Both the position numbers and the translations under genes were made by a program. Source: Escherichia coli (GTDB lineage: Bacteria; Pseudomonadota; Gammaproteobacteria; Enterobacterales; Enterobacteriaceae). Taken from it: a DNA stretch of 64,000 nt. Where the stretch lies: assembly GCF_030384885.1 (NCBI RefSeq), contig NZ_CP128613.1; one strand, written 5' to 3'. Positions 3,347 to 14,045 of this stretch are shown here, in pieces. The first letter of the stretch is position 1; each line of letters starts with the position of its first letter. A model generated the notes under the pieces. It made no database searches. It saw only the letters and a list, made by a program, of their open reading frames with translations, and was not told the origin of the DNA.

Positions 3347-4213
3347 TTAAGGACGTGCGAGGAAATTCAGCACCAGTTGATTGAAAGCGTCGGCATGTTC
3401 CCACTGAGCCCAGTGACCACAGTCGCGGAAGATATGCAGCTCAGAACCGGCGATGCCAGAAAGCAGACGCAGCCCTGCATCCATCGGCACAAAACGGTCG
3501 TTACGCCCCCAGACAATCAGAGTTTGCGCTTTGATTTCCGTCAGACGTGGGCCAAAATCCGGGAACTGTTTCGGATTGGCTTCCAGGCTCTTAACGAAGT
3601 TTTCCAGGTGATCGCGGCGCGACAGCATATTATTCAGGCGCGCTTCAAACAGGGCGTCGGTCAAATCGCTGGTATCGAAAACGAAGATATCCATCATCAG
3701 CTTCAGATTTTCGATAGTCGGCTGGCGATAAAGCTGATTCAGTCGCTTAATGCCTTCAGTTGGCATCGGCGTAAACAAACTCATGCCACCTGTACCGCCG
3801 CCCATCAGCACCAGTTTGCCGACGCGCTCCGGCCAGTTAAGGGTGAACGCCACAGAACTGTGGCCGCCCATCGAGTTGCCCAGCAGGTGGATTTTGGCGA
3901 TATCCAGTTGATCCACCACGCTTTTCAGGATGCGCGCATTGAGATCCGATCGCGAACCACTGTTAACGATCGAATCGCTCTTACCCCAACCAGGACAATC
4001 CAGCAGGATCACCCGATAACCAGCTTCTACCAGCGGATCGATATTGCGGCTGAAGTTCGCCCAGCCCGTAGCCCCCGGGCCGGAGCCGTGCAGCAGGACA
4101 ACGGTTTCGTCGCCTTGACCGCAGTCATTAAAATGGATGCGCAGCGTTTTACCCGCTTCTTCTACATTCAGAAAACGGCTGGTGGCGGCTTCGGTTTGTG
4201 GCTGATAACTCAT
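3347..4213 (-). CDS. mhpC: 2-hydroxy-6-ketonona-2,4-dienedioate hydrolase (alpha/beta hydrolase)
   Basis: ORF is open to 4276 (309 aa); the 288-aa form starting [22 protein letters not shown] at the ATG ending at 4213 avoids overlap with mhpB; GNSMGG nucleophile elbow present. Confidence 0.9.
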
Positions 4214-4230: not shown

Positions 4231-5175
4231 TCAGTTCTCTGTTCTGGCGCTTAACGAGCCAAATCCGGCAATCCACTCCGGGATCGGGCGGTAATAACGC
4301 CCTTCGCTACGCCAGTTGCCAAACGCAGAAATAGCGGCAAAAGCAGCGACCCAGGTTTTGATTTCATGTGTCGACTTTCCTGCAATGGCGGAAAGCTCTT
4401 CGTTACTGACGGCATCCAGTTCCTGTATGCGTCCCTGCTCCAGCAAAGACATGAACTGGTTATCCCAAATCGGGTTGAGCGGATGCAGAGTTCTCTGATC
4501 CTCAACAAACCTCTCAGCGGCGCTAATCACCCGTTGCTGGCGCATTTCGCGCTCATTGGCGGGCAAATCTTTCCCGCTACCCAACAGACGATCGCGCATA
4601 TGGGCATCCGCTTTCGCCAGTTCTGGCACCGGCGGCTGATGGGAAAGCCCACCGGAACCCAGGAACAGCACGCGCTTATTCAGCGTGCTGGTGAAACGTC
4701 CAATGGCTTCACCCAACATGCGGGTACGCTGAAAACCAGGTAGCGGCGTGGCGACACCGTTGATGAATACAGGCAGGACCGGCACCTTATCCAGCCCACC
4801 GAGCAAGAACTCCAGCGGCTGGGCGAACCCATGATCCACCTGCATACAGTAAGAAACGGCAAGATCAATCCCGCTCTTCATGACGGCATGCGCACAAGCC
4901 TCCGCCAACTCCACAGGCACAGGAAGCTCTCCTGCCGCACTGCCGAAATCGCCAATTGCCGTCGCCCCAACGCCTAAACAGAAGGGTGGCATCACGTCAT
5001 AGAAAAAACCGTTGTAATGATCTGGCGCAAACAGCACCACCAGTTCAGGGGAGAAGGCCGCAATACGCTCGCGGGCACTGGCAATCACGCCATTGACCTC
5101 ATCGAGTATCTCTTGCGCCGGGTCGACATACCCTACCAGCGGCGAGTGGGAAAGACAGTGAAGATAAGCGTGCAT
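4231..5175 (-). CDS. mhpB: 3-(2,3-dihydroxyphenyl)propionate extradiol dioxygenase
   Basis: 314-aa [25 protein letters not shown]... Confidence 0.95.
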
Positions 5176-5176
5176 A

Positions 5177-6841
5177 TCAGGCTACCTTTTCGACAGAAAC
5201 GTCGACATCAGGGCGGTTGAGTGTCATCACGGACGCCAGTTTATTCAGCGTATTACCCAGAGTTTGCGGAATGGCGATGGCGGCAACAAAGCGATCCGGG
5301 CGCATCACCACCAGCGAAGCATTATGTTGTGCGAACCAGCTACGCAGGCGACCTTGCGTATCGCCCACGCGCAGCACGCCGGCGTGGTTATCCTGCGCGG
5401 TATGAATTTGCACATCCGGCACCACCTGAATGAAGCGAGTACCCAGCGCGCGCCATTGCTGGATTTGCTCATCGCTCATCCCCCACAGTGGATTGCATCC
5501 CCAGCCAATTACCGCGAAGTTCGCGCCGATCGCGTTATCGAGCAACGTCACGTCGCCGTTTTCCAGCGTAACTTTCGGCTGAATAAACATCTTGCCGACC
5601 GGAGAGTGTTTCGCTTCGCCTTCACGCACCAGCGCACCGGCGTAATATTGCGGCATCGGCTTGAAGCGCATTTCGAGAAAGTAGCGTTTTACTGGCGGCA
5701 GATAATTCAGCAGCCAGGAAACACCGTCACGTAACGTACCCTGCCAGCGTTTCGGCGGAGCCAGTACGTTGCCCGCCGTCACCGACAGATCAATCATCGC
5801 TTTGGCGTGATCGCGACGTTCTTGTTGATAGGTATCGAGCAGCGCATCGCGAGCTTTCCCCTGGATAACCAACGCCAGTTTCCAGGCGAGGTTAAAGGCG
5901 TCGCGCATACCACTGTTATAGCCCTGCCCCTGCCACACCGGCATGATATGTGCGGCATCGCCCGCCAGCAGTACGCGGTCAATACGAAAACGTTGTGCCA
6001 GTCGCGCGTTGTGGGTGTAGACACGCTGGCGAATCAACTCGACGTTGTCCGGATTAGGCAGCACTTTGCTTAACAGCTTGCGCATATTTTGCGGCTCGCG
6101 GAGCTGTTCTTCGGTTTCGCCCGGCATCACCATAAATTCAAAGCGACGTACCGCATGAGGCAGAGCCGCAGAAACATACGGGCGCACCGGATCGCAACAC
6201 AAATAGATATGCGGCGTACTTAACGGATCGTTGGCGATATCCACCACAATCCACTGATTTGGTGCGGTTTTACCTTCAAACGGCACATTCAGGGTGCGCC
6301 GGACAAAACTTGATCCACCGTCACAGGCTACCAGCCACTGGGCTTTGACCGTTTCCCGCTGCCCTTCTGCCGTTTTCAGATACAAGGTCACTTCGTCATC
6401 TTGCTGGCTGAAGGCCTCCAGCTCGCGGGAAAACAGGCAGCGCACATTCGGAAACCGCGACAACCCTTCCAGCATCACCGCATCGACCTGCGGCTGAATA
6501 AAGGCGTTACGACGCGGCCAGCCAAATTCATCGGTCATTGGCTGAATATCAGCAAAACAGCGGCCTTTTGGGGTAAGAAAACGCATCGCATGCCACGGCG
6601 TAGTGTGCGGCAGAACATTATCGACAAGGTCAACCGACTGCATGGTGCGCAGCGCCTCGTCATCAATTCCAATCGCGCGTGGATAGTCGATCAACTTATC
6701 GAGTTTCTCCACCACCAGCACGTCAATGCCCATCTGGCCGAGATAGTTCGCCATCATCAGCCCGACCGGACCGGCACCAGCGATCGCCACCTGAACGCAA
6801 TGGTTAACAGCAGGCTGGATGTCAGGGTGTTGTATTGCCAT
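5177..6841 (-). CDS. mhpA: 3-(3-hydroxyphenyl)propionate hydroxylase (FAD monooxygenase)
   Basis: 554-aa [38 protein letters not shown]... with GxGxxG FAD motif. Confidence 0.95.
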
Positions 6842-7031
6842 TTCAGTACCTCACGACTCGGACAAAATGCCGTTGCGCGCACAGTTCAACGCAACTTATT
6901 TTGTTAAAAACATGTAAATGATTTTTTATTGTGCGCTCAGTATAGGAAGGGTGTTTTCGGCTACAATCAAAACATGCCTGAGTGTGCACCAAGTGCACAA
7001 CGTTGTTTTAACTATAGAAATGTCAATTAAT
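6842..7031. promoter_or_regulatory. divergent mhpR / mhpABCDFE control region
   Basis: AT-rich intergenic region between divergently oriented mhpA (-) and mhpR (+); individual sites not resolved. Confidence 0.5.
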
Positions 7032-7865
7032 ATGCAGAAAGATGTGCAGACGGAATACAAAACCGTGCGCGGCTTAACCCGCGGTCTAATGTTATTAAAT
7101 ATGTTAAATAAACTCGATGGCGGTGCCAGCGTCGGGCTGCTGGCGGAGCTCAGCGGCCTGCATCGCACCACTGTGCGGCGACTGCTGGAAACGCTGCAGG
7201 AAGAGGGATATGTCCGGCGCAGTACCTCCGATGACAGTTTTCGTCTGACCATCAAAGTGCGGCAATTAAGCGAAGGATTTCGTGACGAACAATGGATTTC
7301 TGCACTGGCAGCCCCGCTACTGGGCGATCTGTTGCGCGAAGTGGTATGGCCGACAGATGTGTCCACGCTGGATGTTGATGCAATGGTGGTACGCGAAACC
7401 ACCCACCGTTTCAGCCGTTTATCTTTTCACCGGGCAATGGTCGGACGGCGTTTACCGCTCCTGAAAACCGCCTCGGGACTGACCTGGCTGGCCTTTTGCC
7501 CGGAACAAGAACGCAAGGAGTTAATCGAAATGTTAGCCGCCCGCCCCGGTGATGACTATCAACTGGCACGGGAACCGTTAAAGCTGGAAGCCATTCTGGC
7601 GCGCGCACGCAAAGAGGGTTACGGACAGAACTACCGTGGCTGGGATCAGGAAGAGAAGATCGCCTCCATTGCCGTGCCCCTACGCAGTGAACAACGGGTG
7701 ATTGGCTGTCTGAATCTGGTGTATATGGCAAGCGCAATGACCATCGAACAGGCAGCGGAAAAGCATCTTCCGGCGCTACAACGGGTAGCAAAACAGATCG
7801 AAGAAGGGGTTGAATCGCAGGCTATTCTGGTGGCCGGACGGCGAAGCGGCGTGCATTTACGCTAG
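7032..7865 (+). CDS. mhpR: IclR-family transcriptional activator of the mhp operon
   Basis: 277-aa protein from ATG 7032, MQKDVQTEYKTVRGLTRGLMLLNML...; the listed ORF from 6918 is an upstream extension. Confidence 0.9.
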   Translation: MQKDVQTEYKTVRGLTRGLMLLNMLNKLDGGASVGLLAELSGLHRTTVRRLLETLQEEGYVRRSTSDDSFRLTIKVRQLSEGFRDEQWISALAAPLLGDLLREVVWPTDVSTLDVDAMVVRETTHRFSRLSFHRAMVGRRLPLLKTASGLTWLAFCPEQERKELIEMLAARPGDDYQLAREPLKLEAILARARKEGYGQNYRGWDQEEKIASIAVPLRSEQRVIGCLNLVYMASAMTIEQAAEKHLPALQRVAKQIEEGVESQAILVAGRRSGVHLR

Positions 7866-7979
7866 TTGCGCCAATGTGTAATTTGGCCCATTTTCATCGT
7901 TATTCGCCCATTTGCCCACATGCACAGTACGGGCTGCACGCTACGCTAATGCCATCAATACTGTGATGTGGAGCAAATC

Positions 7980-8756
7980 ATGAAAATTACTCAAATTCGT
8001 AATGCCACCCAAATTATCCAATACGCTGGCAAAACATTTCTTATTGACCCGTTACTCGCGCCTAAAGGAAGTTATCCGGGTTTTGCCGGAACGGCACGCG
8101 CAGAAATCCGCAATCCAACGGTAGAATTACCGTGTGATTTAACAACGTTACTCAACGTTGACGCCCTAATAGTGACCCATTTGCATGAAGATCACTGGGA
8201 CGAAACAGCCTCCCGCGTCGTCCCCAAAGATAAACAGATTTATGTGCAAAATGAGCAAGATGCTGAATCACTGCATAAACAAGGATTTACGCATCTTACC
8301 GTACTTGCCGACGAGACTAAATTTGGCGATATTACTCTGCATAAAACGACAGGGCAGCACGGCTCCGATCGCACCTATGCAGACCCGGCTATGGCGAAGC
8401 GTTTAGGCGCAGCCTGCGGCGTTGTTTTCCAGCACCCGACAGAGAAAACGCTCTATCTGGCTGGCGATACCCTCTGGCGTGATGACGTCGAGGCTACAAT
8501 GCTAACTTTCCAACCAGAAGTGGTGGTGTTGAATGCCGGATTTGCGCATGTTCTGGGGCATGGCGCGATAATTATGGGAGCTGAAGATATTCTCAAAACA
8601 CATTTTACCCTGCCAGAAGCGCAAATTGTCGCGACACATATGGAGGCCGTAAACCACTGTTTGCTGACGCGTGATGCGCTCAAGGAATACGCCAGAGATA
8701 ATCAAATTATCGAATTTGTGAACGTACCAGAAGATGGTGAAACGTTGACATTCTAA
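7980..8756 (+). CDS. MBL-fold metallo-hydrolase (possible lactonase / glyoxalase-II-like), function unknown
   Basis: 258 aa from ATG 7980 (GGAG 7 nt upstream); metal-binding motif THLHEDHWD (HxHxDH); no signal peptide. Confidence 0.75.
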   Translation: MKITQIRNATQIIQYAGKTFLIDPLLAPKGSYPGFAGTARAEIRNPTVELPCDLTTLLNVDALIVTHLHEDHWDETASRVVPKDKQIYVQNEQDAESLHKQGFTHLTVLADETKFGDITLHKTTGQHGSDRTYADPAMAKRLGAACGVVFQHPTEKTLYLAGDTLWRDDVEATMLTFQPEVVVLNAGFAHVLGHGAIIMGAEDILKTHFTLPEAQIVATHMEAVNHCLLTRDALKEYARDNQIIEFVNVPEDGETLTF

Positions 8757-8775
8757 TTCGGAGATAAAGAGTGTT

Positions 8776-9729
8776 ATGCGCCCGCTAACTGTTGCCATTA
8801 TCGCCGTTGCCGGTTTTAGTCCTTTTCACCTTTCCGTACCGTTTATCGTGTTTAGCGAAAAAATGGCGGAGAAAAAACGCTTTCATGTAATTATCTGCGC
8901 TGAAAAGCCGGGAAATGTGGACTCTGCCGATGGGTTTTCCGTAACCGCCACCCATGACTATACGGCAGTCATCCAGGCGGATATTGTGATAATTCCTTAC
9001 TGGGGAACAATTACACAAAAACCGCCACAAAAACTGCTGGAAGCCTTAACGACCGCACGAGATAACGGGGCACAGATTGTCGGGCTTTGCCTGGGCACGT
9101 TTGTGCTCGGCTATGCAGGTTTACTGAACAATAAGCGTGCTGCCACGCACTGGGAGTTCGAGCGTGAATTTCAGGCACGTTTTCCACAAACACATCTGGA
9201 TATTAACGCGTTGTATGTAGACGATGATGGCATTATTACCTCTGCCGGTACTGCCGCGGCGCTGGATTGCTGTTTGTATATTGTTCGGCAACATTTTGGC
9301 AGCGACTATGCTAACCATATTGCCCGACGGATGGTCGTACCGCCATATCGCACCGGCGGTCAGGCGCAGTTTATAGAGCAACCGGTGCCGAAAAATACCC
9401 ATGATGAACGCATTAACCTCCTGCTGGATTACCTGCGGCAAAACATTGCGCAACAGCATGATCTCGACTCGCTGGCTCAGCGAGTAATGATGAGTCGCCG
9501 CACACTAACCCGTCATTTTATGAAAGCGACCGGTTCGAGTATCGCCGAATGGCTCATCACTGAACGCTTACGCCGTAGCCAGGAACTGTTGGGATCCAGT
9601 CAGTTGCCCGTTGAGCGGATAGCGGCTGAGGTGGGTTTTCTCTCACCTGTGACCTGGCGTCAGCATTTTAAATCTCACTTCGGCGTCAGCCCCGCAGAAT
9701 GGCGCAAAACCTTTCGTGGTATGGCATGA
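8776..9729 (+). CDS. GlxA-family transcriptional regulator (N-terminal DJ-1/PfpI-like domain, C-terminal AraC-type HTH)
   Basis: 317 aa; N-terminal part has the nucleophile-elbow-like IVGLCLGTF; C-terminal RRTLTRHFMKATGSSIAEWLITERLRRSQELL... is a typical AraC HTH pair. Confidence 0.75.
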   Translation: MRPLTVAIIAVAGFSPFHLSVPFIVFSEKMAEKKRFHVIICAEKPGNVDSADGFSVTATHDYTAVIQADIVIIPYWGTITQKPPQKLLEALTTARDNGAQIVGLCLGTFVLGYAGLLNNKRAATHWEFEREFQARFPQTHLDINALYVDDDGIITSAGTAAALDCCLYIVRQHFGSDYANHIARRMVVPPYRTGGQAQFIEQPVPKNTHDERINLLLDYLRQNIAQQHDLDSLAQRVMMSRRTLTRHFMKATGSSIAEWLITERLRRSQELLGSSQLPVERIAAEVGFLSPVTWRQHFKSHFGVSPAEWRKTFRGMA

Positions 9730-9730
9730 T
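9703..9730 (+). promoter_or_regulatory. lacI promoter (-35 GCGCAA, -10 CATGAT)
   Basis: Sequence ggcgcaaaacctttcgtggtatggcatgat matches the classical lacI promoter with one substitution; it lies inside the 3' end of the upstream regulator gene. Confidence 0.7.
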
Positions 9731-9765
9731 AGCGCCCGGAAGAAAGTCAATTCAGGGTGGTGAAT

Positions 9766-10848
9766 GTGAAACCAGTAACGCTATACGATGTCGCGGAGTA
9801 TGCCGGTGTCTCTTATCAGACCGTTTCGCGCGTGGTGAATCAGGCTAGCCACGTTTCAGCGAAAACGCGGGAAAAAGTGGAAGCGGCGATGGCGGAGCTA
9901 AATTACATTCCCAACCGCGTAGCACAACAGTTAGCGGGCAAACAGTCGTTGCTGATTGGCGTTGCCACCTCCAGTCTGGCCCTGCACGCACCGTCGCAAA
10001 TTGTCGCGGCGATTAAATCTCGCGCCGATCAACTGGGTGCCAGCGTGGTGGTGTCGATGGTAGAAAGAAGTGGTGTCGAAGCCTGTAAAGCGGCAGTACA
10101 CAATCTTCTCGCGCAACGCGTAAGTGGTCTGATCATCAACTATCCGCTGGATGACCAGGATGCCATTGCTGTGGAGGCAGCCTGCGCTAATGTTCCGGCG
10201 CTATTTCTTGATGTCTCTGACCAGACTCCCATCAACAGTATTATTTTTTCCCATGAAGACGGTACGCGGCTGGGCGTAGAGCATTTGGTCGCATTGGGTC
10301 ACCAGCAAATCGCGCTGTTAGCGGGCCCATTAAGTTCTGTCTCGGCGCGTCTGCGTCTGGCGGGCTGGCATAAATATCTTAAACACAATCAAATTCAACC
10401 GATAGCGGAACGGGAAGGCGACTGGAGCGCCATGTCCGGTTTTCATCAAACCATGCAGATGCTGAATGAGGGCATCATTCCTACCGCGATGCTGGTTGCC
10501 AACGACCAGATGGCGCTGGGTGCAATGCGCGCCATTACCGAGTTCGGGCTGCGCGTCGGCGCGGATATCTCGGTAGTGGGATACGACGATACCGAAGACA
10601 GCTCGTGTTATATCCCGCCATTAACGACCATCAAACAGGATTTTCGCCTGCTTGGGCAAACCAGCGTGGACCGCTTGCTGCAACTCTCTCAGGGCCAGGC
10701 GGTGAAGGGCAATCAGCTGTTGCCCGTCTCACTGGTGAAACGAAAAACCACCCTGCCACCCAATACGCAAACCGCTTCTCCCCAGGCGTTGGCTGATTCC
10801 TTAATGCAACTGGCGCGACAAATTTCCCGACTGGAAAGCGAGCAGTGA
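9766..10848 (+). CDS. lacI: lactose operon repressor
   Basis: GTG start at 9766 (GTG AAA CCA GTA ACG), 360 aa, MKPVTLYDVAEYAGVSYQTVSRVVNQ... Confidence 0.97.
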   Translation: MKPVTLYDVAEYAGVSYQTVSRVVNQASHVSAKTREKVEAAMAELNYIPNRVAQQLAGKQSLLIGVATSSLALHAPSQIVAAIKSRADQLGASVVVSMVERSGVEACKAAVHNLLAQRVSGLIINYPLDDQDAIAVEAACANVPALFLDVSDQTPINSIIFSHEDGTRLGVEHLVALGHQQIALLAGPLSSVSARLRLAGWHKYLKHNQIQPIAEREGDWSAMSGFHQTMQMLNEGIIPTAMLVANDQMALGAMRAITEFGLRVGADISVVGYDDTEDSSCYIPPLTTIKQDFRLLGQTSVDRLLQLSQGQAVKGNQLLPVSLVKRKTTLPPNTQTASPQALADSLMQLARQISRLESEQ

Positions 10849-10861
10849 GCGCAACGCAATT
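10841..10861. promoter_or_regulatory. lac operator O3
   Basis: gcagtgagcgcaacgcaatta at the 3' end of lacI. Confidence 0.7.
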
Positions 10862-10884
10862 AATGTGAGTCAGCTCACTCATTA
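10861..10884. promoter_or_regulatory. CRP (CAP) binding site of lacP
   Basis: taatgtgagtcagctcactcatta; TGTGA-N6-TCACT half-sites. Confidence 0.8.
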
Positions 10885-10896
10885 GGCACCCCAGGC

Positions 10897-10926
10897 TTTA
10901 CACCTGATGTGTCCGACTCGTATGTT
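10897..10926 (+). promoter_or_regulatory. lac promoter (-35 TTTACA, 18-bp spacer, -10 TATGTT)
   Basis: Hexamers and spacing identical to canonical lacP; spacer sequence differs. Confidence 0.85.
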
Positions 10927-10932
10927 GTATGA

Positions 10933-14045
<3,113 letters not shown>

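Follow-up and report, generated by a model that had tools for sequence, protein, structure and literature searches.

A lacI promoter shared with the 3' end of a GlxA-family regulator gene, and its probable descent from O-island 19 in Escherichia coli

What did the lacI promoter, which ranks among the most widely used in molecular biology, evolve from? The question is raised by a 64,000-nucleotide stretch of the Escherichia coli contig NZ_CP128613.1 (the whole stretch is called the window below), in which two genes, encoding a metallo-beta-lactamase (MBL)-fold hydrolase and a GlxA-family regulator, stand between mhpR and lacI. An initial annotation, made from the window alone, had reported this two-gene module, and the sequence and the list of open reading frames (ORFs) bear it out. 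It had also stated that in K-12 the lacI promoter follows the mhpR stop within about 75 bp; in MG1655 (mhpR 367587–368420, lacI 366428–367510) the interval between the two genes is 76 bp and holds no gene. The explanation that we offer, and in which we have high confidence, is that the order mhpR-z0443-ovrA-lacI (z0443 and ovrA being the hydrolase and regulator genes as named in O157:H7) is ancestral, that the lacI promoter came from the tail of the regulator gene, and that the module was lost later in other lineages.

The evidence centres on the 3' end of the regulator gene, which closes with the ten codons GAA TGG CGC AAA ACC TTT CGT GGT ATG GCA (9697–9726), encoding EWRKTFRGMA, and the stop TGA; GAATGG begins at 9697, which is a small correction to the initial annotation. 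From GAATGG onward the window is collinear with the sequence upstream of lacI in MG1655, with a single difference (CGT vs CGC) that falls in the spacer and none in the hexamers. The proposal that the classical lacI promoter is made of the last ten regulator codons is upheld by this alignment of 9697–9729, and the homology, which was checked for stopping short of the coding sequence, covers all ten; the stop codon TGA (9727–9729) lies inside the -10 hexamer CATGAT (9725–9730), as had been claimed. We take GCGCAA and CATGAT to be the lacI promoter hexamers from what is established about this promoter and about the lacIq mutation. The -35 is read as tGG CGC AAa, the W-R-K codons of the regulator, the spacer is 17 nt, and both hexamers stand at the K-12 distance from the lacI GTG. 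Over 90 nt from GAATGG into lacI the window is 100% identical to KE55, a strain without the module. With a match of 33 or more nucleotides to a characterised promoter, chance is not an issue. The lacI promoter, with 7 of 12 consensus matches, is not listed by a generic promoter scan, and for a promoter this weak that is no surprise. The window therefore has the -35 GCGCAA, the 17-nt spacer length, the -10 CATGAT and the leader of the classical K-12 promoter, a weak constitutive sigma-70 promoter; unlike in K-12, translation of a functional gene, that of the regulator, runs through the -35 and the spacer and into most of the -10.

One claim of the initial annotation needs rewording, namely that transcription of lacI begins within a coding region. 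It is the -35, the spacer and the -10 that lie within the ORF. The K-12 start, however, is said to have been placed 28 nt before the GTG by Calos in 1978, and by homology the start in the window would fall at about 9738, 9 nt past the regulator stop. The promoter, rather than the start site, would then be what lies inside the coding region. Strains in which this promoter is established to express lacI share the promoter, leader and start codon found here, so binding of RNA polymerase over the last regulator codons, with initiation near 9738, would be expected in module-bearing strains. The sequences, synteny, conservation and distribution reported here are observed directly; from the behaviour of K-12 the promoter should be active next to the module as well.

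A second route to lacI expression has to be weighed against this one. All four genes are on the plus strand (window 6800–11000 inspected), with gaps of 114 nt from the mhpR stop to the hydrolase ORF, 19 nt from hydrolase to regulator (holding a Shine-Dalgarno-like GGAGA) and 36 nt from the regulator stop to the lacI GTG. A consensus promoter/terminator scan found no terminator-like site among mhpR, the module genes and lacI except a weak hairpin at 7870–7887, so read-through into lacI is likely, and module transcripts probably also run into it. In EDL933, z0443 is reported to be strongly expressed and 10-fold RpoS-dependent (PMC2907692), so that the amount of LacI might vary with growth phase in module-bearing strains. 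It is possible, if rather unlikely, that such strains owe most of their lacI expression to transcripts reading through out of mhpR or the hydrolase-regulator operon, with the embedded promoter occluded or minor. The short gap, the lack of terminators and the strong expression of z0443 all agree with that, but the hexamers, spacer and leader are identical to those of module-less strains and are kept across genera even where the upstream gene is gone. Because the promoter is kept where the upstream gene is lost, we argue that the promoter itself is what selection retains. The read-through alternative concerns the relative share of two routes and is compatible with an origin of the promoter in the regulator gene.

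Is the coding sequence or the promoter the older of the two? The regulator has a DJ-1/PfpI domain (PF01965, residues 6–171) and an AraC-type HTH_18 domain (PF12833, residues 233–311), and this combination of an N-terminal DJ-1/PfpI domain with a C-terminal AraC-type double helix-turn-helix (HTH) places it in the GlxA family. Assignment to the FtrA equivalog (NCBIfam NF006902) was considered and dropped, as the score of 324.4 bits stands against a curated cut-off of 425; the protein is FtrA-related only. The residues EWRKTFRG, encoded by the promoter region, make up the conserved C-terminal end of the HTH domain in all 80 regulator orthologues retrieved, among them those of Aeromonas, Geomonas, Marinobacter, Massilia and Pseudomonas, with no lacI nearby; the motif SP.EWR[KR]TF.G is kept in the orthologues of Aeromonas, Geomonas, Marinobacter and Massilia. 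Orthologues from beyond the Enterobacteriaceae were looked at for a missing EWRKTF C-terminus, and they carry it. Since distant orthologues keep these residues with no lacI beside them, the codons came first and gave rise to the promoter.

The overlap has consequences on both sides. The up-mutation lacIq changes the -35 from GCGCAA to GTGCAA, which would equal R310C in the regulator; promoter-up changes of this kind would alter a conserved OvrA arginine, so promoter and protein would constrain each other in module-bearing strains. Conversely, a deletion of the whole ovrA ORF takes away the lacI -35 and most of the -10, and LacI levels of ovrA mutants may be altered as a result. OvrA of the window and of O157:H7 are identical at 316 of 317 residues. 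Two reviews describe the O157:H7 protein as an activator of the AraC type (PMC8565820, PMC10877973); it is reported to bind the promoter of LEE1, the first operon of the virulence island LEE (locus of enterocyte effacement), and to switch on ler (Liu et al., 2020, cited in PMC8565820). The published 17-bp OvrA binding motif has one match in the window, with three mismatches, at 11348–11364 in lacZ, which is at chance level.

The initial annotation had suggested an alignment to MG1655 and other E. coli genomes, and this maps the junction: 1,835 bp (7862–9696) are missing in K-12-type genomes, and 11 bp stand in their place. We surveyed 5,426 complete E. coli genomes. The interior of the module is present in 435 (~8%), mostly O157:H7, O55:H7, O145:H28 and some others, 18 of them matching the window at 99% identity or more. 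Every carrier has it whole, in one copy and on the chromosome, and no partial or intermediate form was found. A different arrangement occurs in 487 genomes including CFT073 (phylogroup B2), which lack the whole mhp cluster, the gene for the hydrolase and the first 855 nt of that for the regulator, so that yaiL is joined to a 99-bp in-frame regulator fragment directly upstream of lacI. The remaining matching genomes have the K-12-type junction. As the CFT073 type retains more of the regulator than K-12 does, it cannot be derived from the K-12 state, and both must come from a module-bearing ancestor. This 99-bp fragment, the residues conserved in distant orthologues and the synteny in Citrobacter all support the suggestion that the K-12 arrangement arose by deletion; the pattern would extend well beyond E. 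coli.

A scan with the regulator protein, using one genome per species, found it in 14 Citrobacter species at 76–80% amino acid identity. In all 14 loci the hydrolase gene directly precedes the regulator gene and lacZ follows, with lacI in between in 13; Citrobacter sp. R56 has lacZ and shows no lacI. mhpR lies upstream in six of them, four of which have mhpA too. Citrobacter sedlakii possesses mhpR-MBL-GlxA-lacI as in the window, with a regulator that ends GGT ATG GCA TGA TAGCGCG (ggtatggcaTGAtagcgcg), its stop within the -10 and lacI 37 nt farther on. Citrobacter rodentium has hydrolase-regulator-lacI-lacZ-lacY in a different upstream context, and its stop codon TAG lies three bases farther, so that the -10 is wholly coding.

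Most Citrobacter loci are more complicated. In 12 of the 14, including most of the C. freundii complex, a convergent gene for a 202-residue S-adenosylmethionine (SAM)-methyltransferase-like protein lies between regulator and lacI (4948–5556 in the Citrobacter braakii locus, L022, with equivalents in L009–L020; the internally deleted remnant in L019 is counted). On one side this gene borders the true 3' end of the regulator gene, and on the other, beside lacI, a second and decayed copy of that end, which is clearest in Citrobacter sp. MGH106 (23/27 nt plus the -10, z = 9.2 against shuffles). We read the gene as an insertion with duplication of its target. The opposite order appears doubtful: the ancestor would have carried the methyltransferase-like gene as the C. 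freundii complex does, and Escherichia, C. sedlakii and C. rodentium would have fused the regulator end to the lacI promoter by deletion between the two similar short sequences. The wide presence of the gene and its paired flanks could be read in that way, yet at least two independent losses (in Escherichia and in the C. sedlakii/C. rodentium group) would be needed instead of one insertion, and the prior presence of a regulator-tail copy upstream of lacI would go unexplained; moreover, the relics on Klebsiella plasmids, in C. koseri and in Salmonella bongori show direct continuity of regulator and lacI. Whichever order is taken, the promoter is homologous to the regulator 3' end.

These relics belong to lac operons that have lost the regulator gene. 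About 1,250 of 72,556 plasmids, mostly from Klebsiella, carry a lac operon with a frameshifted ~85-bp fragment of the regulator 3' end before lacI; the fragment starts at ~9644 in window numbering and its -35, 17-nt spacing and -10 are intact. Examples are L089 (2990–3120) and L090 (2490–2606), and some remnants are cut further by an IS5-family element. In C. koseri the regulator gene is absent and the relic gacgtcagaccggcagaatggcgaaaaaccttcagggtgtggcatcataacgcg stands upstream of lacI; S. bongori has aatggcgaaaaacctttcacggtgtggcatcatagcga there, both relics being 40–50 bp long. Pseudenterobacter keeps both hexamer regions upstream of lacI, and arizonae-like Salmonella, chromosomal K. oxytoca and Tatumella have the TGGCATGAT core only. 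In an alignment of 13 lacI upstream regions TGGCAT(G/C)ATA does not vary, and AATGGCG(C/A)AAAACCTTTC hardly varies in those of Escherichia, Citrobacter, S. bongori and the plasmids. Promoters within the 3' end of an upstream gene, or left as relics of gene decay, are a general bacterial phenomenon, and here likewise a downstream promoter sits in an upstream coding sequence and outlives its deletion. The lacI case differs in that it is a textbook promoter with several separately derived truncations across genera, each sparing the same few dozen bases, and it indicates that a gene-embedded promoter can outlive its gene.

Both module genes are already known as O-island 19 (OI-19), which the initial annotation had not recognised. 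OI-19 of enterohaemorrhagic E. coli (EHEC) O157:H7 is 1,834 bp long and holds z0442 (ovrA) and z0443 (PMC8565820, PMC10877973). In O157:H7 EDL933 it occupies the same place between mhpR and lacI as the module of the window, has the same two genes, is absent from K-12 and is of nearly the same size (1,834 vs 1,835 bp); nucleotide identity to O157:H7 is 97.3–97.9%. The window strain is of a different lineage from O157:H7, with 2013C-4282 as its best match. The NCBI annotation pipeline PGAP calls the orthologue ovrA, “OI-19-encoded virulence regulator”, in some O157:H7 genomes. The literature treats OI-19 as an O157-type island with a virulence regulator, whereas we read it as an ancestral segment, and a search of the literature for the lacI promoter overlap, the Citrobacter synteny, K-12 as the derived state and OI-19 as ancestral found no mention of them. 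A paper on lac acquisition and the flanks of the lac region gives mhpR as the neighbour of lacI in O157 Sakai, overlooking both genes (PMC4549013). The module itself is known; what is added here is where the lacI promoter came from and that OI-19 is ancestral.

The module has the properties of an old resident. Compared with O157:H7 it is less diverged (97.3–97.9% nucleotide identity) than its flanks (mhpR 95.9%, lacI 94.5%), and between E. coli and Citrobacter its proteins share 77–80% of residues, with 80–84% for LacI and LacZ (LacI 82–84%). Differences from O157:H7 amount to 1 amino acid per 24 nucleotide changes in OvrA and 4 (of 258) per 16 in the hydrolase, which is purifying selection, and the GC content of 0.48–0.52 is near the genome average. 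The ORF list contains no mobility gene in the module, no flanking repeats were found, and the module was never seen on plasmids. An acquired island would be marked by odd composition, by mobility genes or borders of tRNA or insertion sequence (IS) type, and by a site that is empty in related genera; the module has ordinary GC content and no mobility gene, and stands at the same site in Citrobacter. Its divergence, purifying selection and GC content together are what a long-established segment shows and an acquired island does not. That OI-19 was instead acquired horizontally and inserted between mhpR and lacI of a K-12-like ancestor, the promoter overlap being a by-product of the insertion point, is very improbable: its standing as an “O island” absent from K-12, and its restriction to so few complete E. 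coli genomes with no representative of another Escherichia species, would suit an insertion, but the pre-existing DNA would have had to supply exactly the conserved HTH end that the 33 nt common with K-12 encode, the same synteny exists in Citrobacter, CFT073-type genomes retain their fragment of the regulator, nothing in mobility, repeats, GC content or plasmid carriage points to import, and neither the divergence within E. coli nor the similarity to Citrobacter, which was tested, sets the module apart from its flanks.

According to the explanation that we favour, the ancestral enterobacterial order would have been mhpR, hydrolase (z0443), regulator (ovrA), lacI, as still seen in O157:H7 in the form of OI-19. 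The weak constitutive promoter of lacI would have arisen within the last codons of the regulator gene, with the conserved W-R-K codons of the AraC-type HTH supplying the -35 and the final alanine codon together with the stop supplying the -10. A 1.8-kb deletion would later have removed both genes from K-12 and most other E. coli lineages, and this deletion would have spared exactly the last 33 nt of the regulator because they are needed for lacI expression. Separate but similar outcomes would be represented by the CFT073-type B2 strains, which lost mhp and nearly all of the module but for 99 bp of regulator sequence, by the mobile lac operons of Klebsiella and other plasmids with their decayed ~85-bp fragment, and by the relics of C. 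koseri and S. bongori. With moderate confidence we extend this to a wider claim: the canonical lacI promoter of K-12, cloning vectors, Citrobacter, S. bongori and Klebsiella lac plasmids may be a fossil of the last codons of an OvrA/GlxA-type gene, lacI-lacZYA may first have sat directly downstream of a sax-like hydrolase-regulator module, and OI-19 may be that module retained and not a virulence island gained. OI-19 of O157:H7 would then pass from the class of acquired islands to that of ancestral segments lost elsewhere.

Four points weigh against this explanation. First, the methyltransferase-like gene makes the order of events in most Citrobacter ambiguous. Second, the protein scan found the regulator in no other Escherichia species, so that within the genus the module is confined to E. 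coli; an Escherichia outgroup sought through diverged LacI proteins yielded two contigs (L103 and L105), both with the K-12-type junction and therefore uninformative. Third, individual module-bearing lineages may have re-imported the module by recombination from another E. coli lineage. Fourth, the 11-bp filler that K-12-type genomes have between mhpR and GAATGG, which occurs as three alleles of equal length (TTGACACCATC, CTGACACCATC and TTAATGCCGCC) differing by transitions only, matches neither flank better than chance. Two candidate sources of these 11 bp were rejected: regulator codons 304–307 match at 5–7 of 11 positions, no better than shuffled controls, and the hydrolase 5' untranslated region (UTR) at 7946–7956 matches at 7–8 of 11 (9 of 11 for the C. 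braakii version), not above shuffles.

The features of the locus are collected in Table 1.

Table 1. Positions of genes, promoter elements and rearrangement boundaries between mhpR and lacI in the window.
Feature	Position	Strand	Basis
mhpR, IclR-type regulator of the mhp cluster	7032..7865	+	ORF list; RefSeq annotation of like layout in O157:H7 and other strains
mhpR stop TAG	7863-7865	+	
Segment missing in K-12-type genomes, 1,835 bp, 11 bp in its place there	7862..9696	.	Junction sequences
Weak hairpin then T-rich run just 3' of mhpR; candidate weak terminator; gone from K-12-type genomes	7870..7887	+	Consensus scan only
Conserved motif 5' of hydrolase gene, TTGGCCCATTTTCATCGTTATTCGCCCATTTGCCCACAT, with GCCCA present three times; putative promoter/operator for the module	7883..7921	+	Conservation; function inferred
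MBL-fold hydrolase ORF, 258 aa, z0443 orthologue	7980..8756	+	ORF list
GlxA-family regulator ORF, 317 aa, OvrA/z0442 orthologue; stop TGA 9727-9729	8776..9729	+	ORF list
Regulator part kept upstream of lacI in CFT073-type (B2) genomes, 99 bp	9631..9729	+	PGAP pseudogene “missing N-terminus”; 487 genomes
Last 10 codons and stop of regulator; part that K-12 retains as lacI promoter	9697..9729	+	Alignment
lacI -35 hexamer GCGCAA, within regulator codons W309-R310-K311	9702..9707	+	Sequence; identical in K-12
lacI -10 hexamer CATGAT, regulator stop TGA inside	9725..9730	+	Sequence
Expected lacI transcription start, 9 nt past regulator stop	~9738	+	Inferred by homology to K-12 start site
lacI, GTG start 9766	9766..10848	+	ORF list; RefSeq annotation of homologous loci

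The other gene of the module belongs to the metallo-beta-lactamase superfamily (Pfam Lactamase_B_2). Its product shares 54% identity with the isothiocyanate hydrolase SaxA of solved structure (PDB: 6BRM) over residues 1–258 against 1–259 (E 2.8e-87), and the metal motif HxHxDH is present as HLHEDH at residues 67–72, which suggests that z0443 is a putative SaxA-family isothiocyanate hydrolase. Hydrolase and regulator genes are adjacent in 67 of 80 loci across Proteobacteria, and the GCCCA-repeat motif upstream of the hydrolase gene is kept in E. coli and in all Citrobacter loci, even with different upstream neighbours. Judged by these features, the module may be a detoxification unit of the sax type that brings along a regulator of its own. 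In the sax genes of Pseudomonas syringae and Pectobacterium, too, a hydrolase is paired with a transcription regulator, saxA encoding the isothiocyanate hydrolase and saxC the regulator (PMC12903958). The difference is that isothiocyanate hydrolysis by z0443 is a prediction; EHEC reviews give the function of the gene as unknown and report no virulence phenotype for it (PMC8565820, PMC10877973). If z0443 does hydrolyse isothiocyanates, this would be of relevance to a gut pathogen that meets compounds from dietary crucifers.

Some smaller features of the locus were recorded. An imperfect 18-nt direct repeat, TACGCTAGTTGCGCCAAT (7858–7875) and TACGCTAATGCCATCAAT (7942–7959), spans the mhpR stop and the hydrolase 5' UTR; its likeness to the filler at the K-12 junction is at chance level. 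At 7842–7865 the MhpR protein of E. coli has a C-terminal extension of seven codons (RSGVHLR) relative to Citrobacter, in which TGA stands where E. coli has CGA. Contig L103, which is metagenome-assembled (Logan ERR3985422), has a variant -35 region, GAATGGAGCAAAACC, beside its K-12-type junction (3440–3500), and its LacI is 87% identical to that of the window. The lac region of the window (9766–11300) is unusually diverged from O157:H7, with 94.5% identity in lacI and 91.5% in the first 330 nt of lacZ, against ~97.7% in the module. Several substitutions relative to O157:H7 fall in the lacZ promoter spacer of the window strain, and the core of the CAP site, the -35, the -10 and O1 are retained.

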